Shown here one piece after another: positions 55,867-58,490 of a DNA stretch of 64,000 bases. Within the stretch, counting starts at the first letter, position 1. Every line of letters starts with the position of its first letter. The stretch is from the NCBI RefSeq assembly GCF_016026235.1, contig NZ_CP065613.1; one strand, 5' to 3'. The DNA is from Escherichia coli. Its GTDB lineage: Bacteria; Pseudomonadota; Gammaproteobacteria; Enterobacterales; Enterobacteriaceae. Position numbers and translations under genes: made by a program. Below the pieces are notes generated by a model. That model was not told where the DNA came from, ran no database searches, and saw nothing but the letters and a program-made list of their open reading frames with translations.

Positions 55867-57852
55867 TTAATTTGGGGTTACGATATTCACCCACAAATCG
55901 AAATTATCCAGACAGGCGATAATTTCTTCCAGTTTCGCGCCATTGCCAATAATTTTGGCTTTCTTCGCTTTTACCAGATCCGCCATTTTGGCTTGTCCGG
56001 TCAGTACGGCGTGCAGATCTTCACGGCTGATGTAGAAAGAGGCGTCGGCTTGCGGTTGCAGTGTTTTACGGTAGTTAAGCACGCTATCGTTCAGCGTCAG
56101 GTTGAGGTTATCGCCGTTGCTCATATTGAAGTTCAGGCTGATATTTTTACCCGCAGCTTTCGCGCTATCGAGGCGAACGGCCATAAAGTCGAACAGCATT
56201 TCGACCGACATCCCGCGAATGGTGTCCGGGGAACCGGTGGTGCCGTGGCTGAACTTATGCACCCCTTCGCGCAGCTCTTTCGCGCCGGTCAGGTAGAAAC
56301 CGCGCCATGTGGCGGACTCGGCCTGATAGCCCAGCTGTTCAAAGTTATTCGCTTGCAGATTTTTCGCCACCTGGTCACCTGGATTGGCGGCAATCACCTG
56401 TTTCAGTAGTTCTGCCGACCAGCGGTAATCACCTTGCTTATTCGCTTCTTGCGCCAGGTTGATGACACGGGCAGAGCCGCCCAGAGCCTGCACATAACGT
56501 TTACCCATCTCCACCTGACCATACGGATGCAGGTTTGCCGGGTTACCGTCGTAATAGCCAAGATAGAAGTTATACACCGCGCGGGCGTTGTGGCTGACAG
56601 AACCGTAATAGCCACGGCTGGCCCAGTTATTGGCAAGTGCAGGCGGCAGCTTAATCATGTCGCCGATTTCATTCATGGTGTAGCCTTGGTTCGCCAGGTG
56701 CAGGGTCTGGTCGTGAATGTACTTGATAGTATCGCGATATTTACCAATATAATCATTGATATGCTTATTGCCCCAGACCGGCCAGGTGTGCGGCATAAAC
56801 AGGACTTCCGCGTCGTTACCCCACATATCCAGCGTTTCGTTCAGATACTCGGTCCACTTGCTGGTGTCGCGGGTTTTCGCGCCGCGCAGAGTGTAGAAGT
56901 TGTGCAGGGTATGCGTGGCGTTCTCGGCGGTACACAGCGCTTTCAGGGCCGGAATATAGAAGTGCATTTCGGCTGGTGCTTCGCTACCTGGGGTCATCAG
57001 GAAGTCAAACTCCAGGCCGTCGATAATCATCTTCTCACCGGTTTTGGTGATGGTTTTGTTCGGTGCGATGATGCTCGGGTAGCCCGATGCCAGCGTTACG
57101 CCAAGACCATTGCCGATGTTACCCTGAGGGTTATGCGCCAGCAGCAGGCCGTAGGAGTAAAGTGCACGGCGGCTCATAATATTACCCGCCAGTACGTTTT
57201 CGCTGATGGCTTCGTCCATAAAGCCAGCAGGGGCGATAACCTGCACTTTACCGGATTTCACATCAGCTTCAGAGATAATGCCTTTCACGCCGCCATAGTG
57301 GTCGGTATGGCTGTGGGTATAAATAACCGCAACAATCGGTTTTTGCGGGCGATTTTGGAAGTAAAGGTCAAGGGCGGCTTTTGCGCTCGGTGGCGTCACC
57401 AGCGGGTCGATGACAATAATCCCGGTATCACCTTCGATAAAGGTGATGTTGGAGATATCCTGACCGCGAACCTGGTACATTCTGTCGGTGACTTTAAACA
57501 GGCCGGAAATACCGTTTAACTGCGACTGACGCCACAGGCTAGGGTTAACGGTTTCAGGCGCGGGCGTATTGATATCAAATTTATAATCTTCCCCGCGATA
57601 ATATGGTTTGCCATTAGCATCGCGCAGAATACCTTCATCCAGCAGCGGAGCGATAAATCCACGCTGAGCGTCGTCAAAATCCTGACGATCGCTAAACGGT
57701 AATGATTTGGCGTAATTCTGATTAACCTGTTGGGTATATTGAGTGGCGGCTTTCGCTTCCTCTTTCGCGTTAGCGGTATTTACCATCATGCCGCTGGCGG
57801 CAGTTAACGCAATAACAATTCTGCTCAAACGGAATAACCGAGAGTTATTCAT
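55867..57852 (-). CDS. yjcS: Alkyl/aryl-sulfatase YjcS (metallo-beta-lactamase fold, 661 aa)
   Basis: Signal peptide plus [10 protein letters not shown] metal-binding motif; start trimmed 4 codons from the maximal ORF. Confidence 0.9.
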
Positions 57853-58104
57853 ATAAATCTCCATTTATCATTTATGTCGTAAATATGTAATCCATGCAAA
57901 ATACGTCATTTAAAGCTGGGGTTATCATAATTGGGAATTTGCGACTTTAATAAGTGGAAGTGTGAGCGGAACGATCCATTTTATTAGGCATTTGTGCTGA
58001 AGGGGGAAAATTACGCGAATTTATTATCTCTGTAAATAATATGAGGTGTTTTATATATTTATTATATATATTGTACTTCGGCAAATACTGAGCACAATTT
58101 ATCA

Positions 58105-58422
58105 ATGCAACCGGTGTTTCTTTTTAAAAAACGTACCGGAGCAATGGGCGGTCATGCCGCTGGCACCGCAGGATTCTGCGTTGCTGTGCCAGCCTTTTAT
58201 TCATGGTCAATGAGTGAGGGGATTGATAAAGAAACCAGGTCGTCAGAGCGCACTGATTATCCGCATTACGCCAGTGAAGTTGCACTGGCTTTTGGTTCAC
58301 GAGTGGTTGGCCTCGAACTGGCAAAAATGATTGTGGATGCGTGGCTGGGCGCACAGTACGAAGGCGGTCGTCATCAACAAAGCGTGGAAGCGATTACGGC
58401 AATAGAGCAGCGGAGAAATTGA
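58105..58422 (+). pseudogene. rpiB: rpiB remnant (ribose-5-phosphate isomerase B fragment)
   Basis: Translation contains SSERTDYPHYAS-VALA and FGSRVVGLELAKMIVDAWLGAQYEGGRHQQ-VEAITAIEQRRN, which I recall as internal and C-terminal RpiB segments; the catalytic N-terminus and middle are missing; sits immediately upstream of yjdP as rpiB does in K-12. Confidence 0.6.
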
Positions 58423-58490
58423 GATTCATCCACTACTTGCATGGATGAGTAATGACTAATGTGGATAGAGTTTCTTTTTGAGGTTGGCTA

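Follow-up and report, generated by a model that had tools for sequence, protein, structure and literature searches.

A probable deletion scar between yjcS and yjdP, a common allele of a variable Escherichia coli locus without the D-allose regulon and most of rpiB

The als (D-allose) regulon of Escherichia coli K-12 and RpiB/AlsI are reportedly the subject of work by Kim et al. in 1997, Sorensen and Hove-Jensen in 1996 and Poulsen et al. in 1999; in the 1996 work, rpiA mutants of K-12 are said to be rescuable by derepression of rpiB. In the K-12-type genome EV36 (locus L002), the gap between yjcS and yjdP measures 7,270 bp and contains alsK, alsE, alsC, alsA, alsB, alsR (rpiR) and rpiB. EAEC 042 was found to be without the als locus and not to use D-allose in Biolog phenotype arrays, whereas MG1655 uses D-allose (Chaudhuri et al. 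2010, PMC2808357); the same paper records a "complete absence" of rpiB, rpiR and alsBACEK, with an rpiB remnant unmentioned. E. coli W is likewise als-negative and D-allose-negative (Archer et al. 2011, PMC3032704), and in a pan-genome analysis of mastitis E. coli, accessory rpiB/alsB were present in 81% of the most-fit and 31–38% of the least-fit strains (PMC11390585). The absence of als-rpiB from many E. coli and its phenotypic consequence are already known, and the rpiB remnant itself seems to have been previously unremarked.

The window analysed here, a 64,000-nucleotide stretch of E. coli contig NZ_CP065613.1, has a yjcS–yjdP gap of 638 bp (57853–58490, from the annotated yjcS start at 57852 on the minus strand to the yjdP start at 58491 on the plus strand). 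An earlier note on this DNA, made from the letters alone, had put the spacing at about 640 bp, which agrees with the measured value, and had placed the als-rpiB genes between yjcS and yjdP in K-12; the gene content holds, and its figure of about 8 kb for the K-12 interval was slightly high. The interval is very probably a deletion scar of fixed form: at a variable locus, it is an allele that lacks the D-allose regulon and in which most of rpiB is missing. The allele is common, has been reported before and is no discovery; what is added here is its exact anatomy, its single origin, its frequency of ~29%, the multi-allelic nature of the locus, evidence for an old core and a caution on annotation. 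The features to which the text refers are as follows.

55867–57852, minus strand: yjcS (alkyl sulfatase), left flank, 97% amino acid identity to K-12-type YjcS; the mechanical ORF reaches 57864.
57853–58076, no strand: AT-rich yjcS upstream region; homology ends at 58076 against the K-12 type and at 58072 against O157:H7.
58077–58152, no strand: extra segment of ~70–76 bp found only in the scar haplotype, a gap in all three als+ references.
58105–58422, plus strand: chimeric 105-aa ORF (WP_038341523.1), named by PGAP "RpiB/LacA/LacB family sugar-phosphate isomerase"; the sole ORF in the interval.
58153–58200, no strand: strongly diverged copy of the yjcS–alsK intergenic spacer, placed by alignment to the als+ references.
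58201–58221, minus strand: alsK stop (TCA on the plus strand, 58201–58203) with about the last 6 codons; left edge of the main deletion.
58213–58222, no strand: junction of the main ~6.5-kb deletion, from the alsK 3′ tip to rpiB codon ~29; the joint can be placed only to within this zone.
58216–58290, plus strand: rpiB fragment 1, codons 29–53, 89.5% DNA identity to K-12.
58285–58290, no strand: joint of the internal 159-bp in-frame rpiB deletion, with CTGGCT microhomology (L52-A53 / L105-A106).
58291–58422, plus strand: rpiB fragment 2, codons 107–149 and stop, 98.5% DNA identity to K-12.
58491–58820, plus strand: yjdP (DDRRRQL repeat protein), right flank, 99% amino acid identity to the K-12 type.

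A near-identical annotated genome, E. coli FDAARGOS_943 (99.94% identity to the window over 12 kb), gives the PGAP order mdtP, mdtO, mdtN, ytcA, yjcS, a 318-bp CDS, yjdP, phnP and onwards. Breakpoints were mapped by sensitive alignment to the EV36 locus, and then with laxer scoring and the als+ relatives E. whittamii (L003) and a divergent Escherichia (L004). Alignment to the K-12 yjcS–yjdP region, the check that the earlier note had proposed, resolved three collinear blocks: window 57700–58076 matches L002 4784–5161 (yjcS with the DNA upstream of it) at 95%, identity falling off in the final ~75 bp; 58215–58294 matches L002 11772–11851 (rpiB codons ~29–54) at 89%; and 58285–58700 matches L002 12001–12416 (rpiB codon 105 to stop, and yjdP) at 98%. 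The second and third blocks overlap at CTGGCT, which encodes Leu-Ala at RpiB 52–53 and 105–106 alike, so that the internal loss from rpiB is 159 bp, or 53 codons, in frame and with 6 bp of microhomology. The main deletion is estimated at ~6.5 kb from the net loss (7,270 − 638 = 6,632 bp), minus 159 bp, plus ~72 bp. Its left edge, the alsK tail at 58201–58221, matches L004 at 16/23 positions, a weak similarity that leaves the boundary approximate. The locus had been read as the joint left by a deletion that took als and rpiR and spared only a non-catalytic remnant of rpiB, and this stands, except that the supposed single junction is in fact two deletions and a segment of ~76 bp. Compared with the K-12 als regulon, the window is without the six als genes, the rpiB promoter and 81/149 RpiB codons including that for Cys66, and the two rpiB pieces that it keeps are 89.5% and 98.5% identical to K-12 DNA and still in frame.

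The sequence at 57800–58150 has a G+C content of 27–38%, and the AT-richness which the earlier note had seen beside the junction is real, but it is not a feature of the deletion: the stretch is ordinary promoter-region DNA upstream of yjcS, which als+ genomes share at 95% identity as far as 58076. The adjoining segment (58077–58152) contains the ATG of the ORF (58105) and a palindrome, TTTTTAAAAA, flanked by CCGGT/ACCGG, and has no second copy in the E. coli genomes searched. Neither the K-12 als region nor the O157 island described below matched it significantly, and permissive tblastn of this filler against the Als proteins in any frame returned nothing significant; ORF residues 1–37 had no match in genome representatives of other species. 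Two candidate sources were tried. Reading the segment as a decayed 5′ end of rpiB (13/14 match to codons 12–16) was rejected, with a score of 12 compared with a shuffled mean of 11.1, and a resemblance by eye to the left edge of the O157:H7 island was not supported, as 25/300 shuffles scored equally. A search of 57500–59100 against Rfam found no family at E ≤ 1.

Comparison of the ORF with the E. coli RpiB structures 1NN4/2VVR gave two collinear in-frame stretches (E = 3e-32), in which ORF residues 38–65 correspond to RpiB 29–56, and 60–105 to RpiB 104–149. The earlier note had read internal and C-terminal RpiB segments in frame, with the N-terminus and about 50 central residues missing; the structure matches bear out the first point, and the missing parts are RpiB 1–28 and 53 residues (54–106). 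The ORF retains 68/149 RpiB residues (29–53 and 107–149), with 81/149 codons gone. Whether it might be unrelated to rpiB, a possibility that the note had itself raised, was examined, and the homology is significant both at the above E value and in DNA identity (89.5% and 98.5%). The N-terminal extension had been called unrelated: residues 1–37 are indeed without similarity to RpiB, but their source is partly local, residues 1–16 coming from the 58077–58152 segment, and residues 17–38 from the yjcS–alsK spacer and alsK tail read antisense.

Thr68, the 67–71 glycine loop, Asp9/His10 and His99 are taken here to be active-site residues of RpiB, by the homologous numbering of PMC4783025 and from the structures 1NN4/2VVR, and Arg133 and Arg137 are the phosphate-binding arginines. 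In the E. coli enzyme, Cys66 serves as the catalytic base (PMC4783025). Asp9, His10, Cys66, Thr68, His99 and the 67–71 loop all lie within the missing residues, 1–28 or 54–106. In family tests the ORF fell below the cut-offs of both NCBIfam models, scoring 73.5 vs 138.65 bits for TIGR01120 (rpiB; K-12 RpiB scores 255.7) and 57.4 vs 88.3 bits for the subfamily model TIGR00689 (K-12 RpiB 211.1). The Pfam family PF02502 (LacAB_rpiB, 138 positions) is incomplete in the ORF, with positions 102–138 matched (E = 6.6e-8) and 26–49 marginal (E = 1.7), so that under half of it is covered.

For sequence variation, six scar copies were aligned, from the window, O104:H4 FWSEC0009, 22a, the urinary isolate E21, AF39 and EAEC 042. 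Within the six, variable sites are equally dense in the ORF (17/318) and in the non-coding DNA upstream (14/240). The ORF changes comprise 11 non-synonymous and 6 synonymous, corresponding to a dN/dS of ~0.56, which does not differ significantly from 1 (p = 0.26), a comparison of six sequences that has little power and is also compatible with weak constraint. In the rpiB-derived codons, the non-synonymous to synonymous ratio is 7:5 vs 7:22 for the same codons of intact rpiB (p = 0.07, borderline, from six sequences). This pattern is compatible with relaxed constraint, within the little power of six sequences. Among the individual changes, Ser replaces R137 in the window and R133 in 22a, and Cys replaces G131 in E21, AF39 and 042, all falling at or beside the phosphate-binding arginines; residue 18 of the window's ORF is Ala, where the other copies have Val.

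As to expression, the native rpiB promoter region (alsR–rpiB intergenic) is deleted. A crude consensus scan of 57800–58560 found no sigma-70-like promoter, for which 2.2 sites are expected by chance, and no Shine-Dalgarno sequence was seen by inspection before the ATG of the ORF. The sole terminator-like hairpin in the region lies at 58270–58289, on the internal deletion joint and inside the ORF. The internal deletion fuses a natural rpiB hairpin (GCCAGTG...CACTGGC) to a TTTTGG run at window 58270–58299, and 0.7 such sites are expected by chance.

Judged on these sequence features, the ORF is most likely a pseudogene remnant whose frame is open by chance, and its product is most likely not made in meaningful amount. 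That it instead encodes a functional protein, either a shortened isomerase or a selected new chimeric protein, is very unlikely, even though the frame is open in 6/6 genomes compared, a CDS is called in ~1,570 complete genomes and the dN/dS of 0.56 is below 1. Set against these are the retention of only 68/149 RpiB residues, without Asp9/His10, Cys66/Thr68 or His99, the failure of both NCBIfam cut-offs and the under-half coverage of PF02502, the loss of phosphate-binding arginines lineage by lineage (R137S in the window, R133S in 22a), a diversity equal to that of the non-coding flank, and the promoter-like site and Shine-Dalgarno sequence that were not found by consensus scan and inspection, respectively. 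The cluster of the ORF at 90% identity, moreover, counts 912 different sequences, with Shigella sonnei and S. flexneri among the named sources, and includes shorter calls of 70 and 92 aa, a spread that also counts against a functional protein. Members of the cluster carry database names as far apart as "hypothetical protein" on the one hand and "ribose-5-phosphate isomerase" or "ribose 5-phosphate isomerase B" on the other. The ORF cannot encode an isomerase, and the name given to it automatically claims too much. The remnant is annotated as an isomerase in well over a thousand genomes (RefSeq/PGAP, UniRef), and such over-annotation could mislead metabolic reconstructions and pan-genome association, and could inflate counts of rpiB presence.

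Four states were seen between yjcS and yjdP, namely the als-rpiB block, the scar, an O157 sugar island and an IS1 deletion, and the interval is a multi-allelic replacement hotspot with at least four alleles. O157:H7 (ECP19-598, L088/L089) shares the boundaries of the variable segment with the window, at 58072–58076 on the left and at 58417 (the rpiB stop) on the right, but carries a sugar cluster of ~9.2 kb where K-12 has als-rpiB and the window has debris only. The island encodes a response regulator, a carbohydrate kinase, a ketose-1,6-bisphosphate aldolase, a D-lyxose/D-mannose isomerase, an ABC transporter and a hybrid sensor kinase. LF4-1 (L087 3249–4227) resembles the window in having lost als-rpiB, but an IS1 copy sits at its joint, and yjcS together with the 5′ portion of yjdP is gone as well, whereas the scar is without an IS and shows short microhomology only. 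The IS1-bounded deletion of LF4-1 is an independent event.

This variability bears on the direction of change. If the short state were ancestral and the als-rpiB block had been inserted in K-12-type lineages, it would be in keeping with a locus that accepts other cargo, as the ~9-kb O157:H7 island between the same boundaries attests, and with the representatives of E. albertii, E. fergusonii, E. marmotae and E. ruysiae not being among the rpiB-bearing matches listed. Such an insertion is nevertheless highly improbable. The scar keeps two collinear in-frame pieces of rpiB, the yjcS–alsK spacer, and the alsK stop and tail, and insertion is contradicted because the rpiB and alsK pieces can only be leftovers of a resident block.

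The scar was then counted in complete E. coli genomes. The 1-kb junction was present (at least 80% of its length) in 1,568/5,426, and the 261-bp scar core in 1,569/5,426 (~29%). All six scar copies, from unrelated backgrounds, are exactly 638 bp and without an indel, from which it follows that the scar arose once. DNA of the als operon is carried by 3,404 genomes, and intact-type rpiB by 3,410 (4,979 − 1,569), leaving ~450 genomes with neither the scar nor als-rpiB. A second rpiB-like place occurred in only 5/4,980 matching records, 4 of these 5 being on plasmids. The matching als and rpiB counts, together with the rarity of second copies, show that scar genomes are as a rule without als-rpiB elsewhere, and in the 64-kb window no als gene was found at another place, the alsA-like matches being distant ABC ATPases of the phn operon only. 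Relocation of the als genes, the other possibility that the earlier note had left to be checked, was thus seen neither in the window nor in the population counts. Carriers of the scar include O104:H4 and 042, and carriers of rpiB include K-12, JJ2434 and LF82. The scar is an old allele common to ~29% of complete E. coli, and not a strain-specific loss; although the source lineage is rare, with only 4 records reaching 99% identity to the window over this 1 kb, the chance that the scar is a recent deletion of this strain or an assembly artefact is negligible, since 1,569 complete genomes of many different laboratories and backgrounds share this scar, with copies up to ~2–3% diverged from one another.

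With the interval read as a deletion scar, its history can be proposed. The ancestor would have had the order yjcS – alsK alsE alsC alsA alsB alsR – rpiB – yjdP. A deletion of ~6.5 kb joined the last alsK codons to rpiB codon ~29; with it went the whole transporter/kinase/epimerase operon and its regulator, and rpiB lost its promoter and codons 1–28. A second deletion (second in this proposed order) removed 159 bp between two CTGGCT repeats, rpiB codons 54–106 including the Cys66 loop. The ~76-bp segment adjoins the left boundary, and the leftovers (the extra segment, the antisense spacer and alsK tail, and the two rpiB pieces) form an open frame of 105 codons by chance. The scar arose once, probably long ago, and the allele would since have spread through the species by homologous recombination in the flanks. 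Cells with the scar would neither take up nor catabolise D-allose, and would presumably rely on RpiA alone for ribose-5-phosphate isomerisation.

The age of the allele may be approached from its core. The first rpiB piece differs from K-12 at 8/76 nt and the second at 2/132 (Fisher p = 0.005). When five scar copies (042 left out) were compared with three E. coli als+ alleles, piece 1 showed 6 fixed differences in 76 nt and piece 2 showed 0 in 132 nt, where the O104:H4 copy equals K-12. One of the fixed differences in piece 1, Q49E, is the residue found in L004 and in Citrobacter amalonaticus, and may be the older state. The scar's synonymous markers in rpiB lie at 58218, 58251 and 58281. The yjcS–alsK spacer of the scar differs from those of K-12, E. 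whittamii and L004 at 18–20/61 sites, whereas these three differ mutually at only 10–11/61. We infer that piece 2, contiguous with yjdP, may be continually homogenised with als+ alleles by homologous recombination, and that piece 1 and the spacer would keep old divergence, or would have accumulated it, because their shortness and their isolation between the two deletion joints prevent them from recombining. The counts are small and fit equally a deletion that dates from roughly the time when the Escherichia species separated and one that arose in a divergent allele acquired by E. coli afterwards; part of the excess could also be explained by decay that quickened once constraint was lost. That the scar is a very old allele with divergence at the level between species, beyond the mere loss of an operon, is a tentative reading of the core to which we give somewhat less than even credence. 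If it were true, als-plus, als-minus and O157-type alleles might have coexisted since before the diversification of E. coli, possibly as a balanced polymorphism, or the scar might have been imported from another Escherichia lineage. Separately, the rpiB of E. whittamii (L003 8917–9366) is a mosaic relative to E. coli, with 2–3/76 nt differences in codons 29–53 and 12–14/132 in codons 107–149, and encodes a protein identical to K-12 RpiB; the mosaic suggests exchange of als/rpiB DNA between species.

A published strain of this locus structure is EAEC 042 (L094), which has the same 638-bp interval and 318-bp CDS as the window, with no indels, and from which the window copy differs by few substitutions, such as R137S and Ala at residue 18 (Val in the other copies). 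E. coli W is likened to the window by its reported als absence and allose phenotype alone. From the 042-type genotype, the source strain is predicted to be D-allose-negative. It is also predicted to be without a back-up ribose-5-phosphate isomerase, and the rescue route through rpiB derepression would be closed. As a hotspot for sugar utilisation with several states, an old deletion allele among them, the locus makes a neat example, of modest interest and involving no new biology.

Further differences were observed in the flanking sequence. In yjcS, a patch of ~700 bp (window 57000–57700) is 85–89% identical to L002 and EAEC 042, with surroundings at 96–100%, and is also ~87% identical to E. 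whittamii and L004; these identities suggest that recombination brought it in from a divergent lineage. The yjdP–phnP spacer (window 58821–58966) consists of 146 bp with G+C-rich repeated motifs (of the ggggagaggg / ccctcacccc types), and has the same length in the K-12 type and only ~34 bp in 22a, E21 and 042, the alignment of the window with 042 being interrupted at 58853–58972; its length difference looks, from the repeats, like a small repeat-element indel. Lastly, yjdP is 357 bp long in JJ2434 and AVS0528 (L090/L091) vs 330 bp in the window, K-12 and 042, a difference that is probably repeat-number variation.
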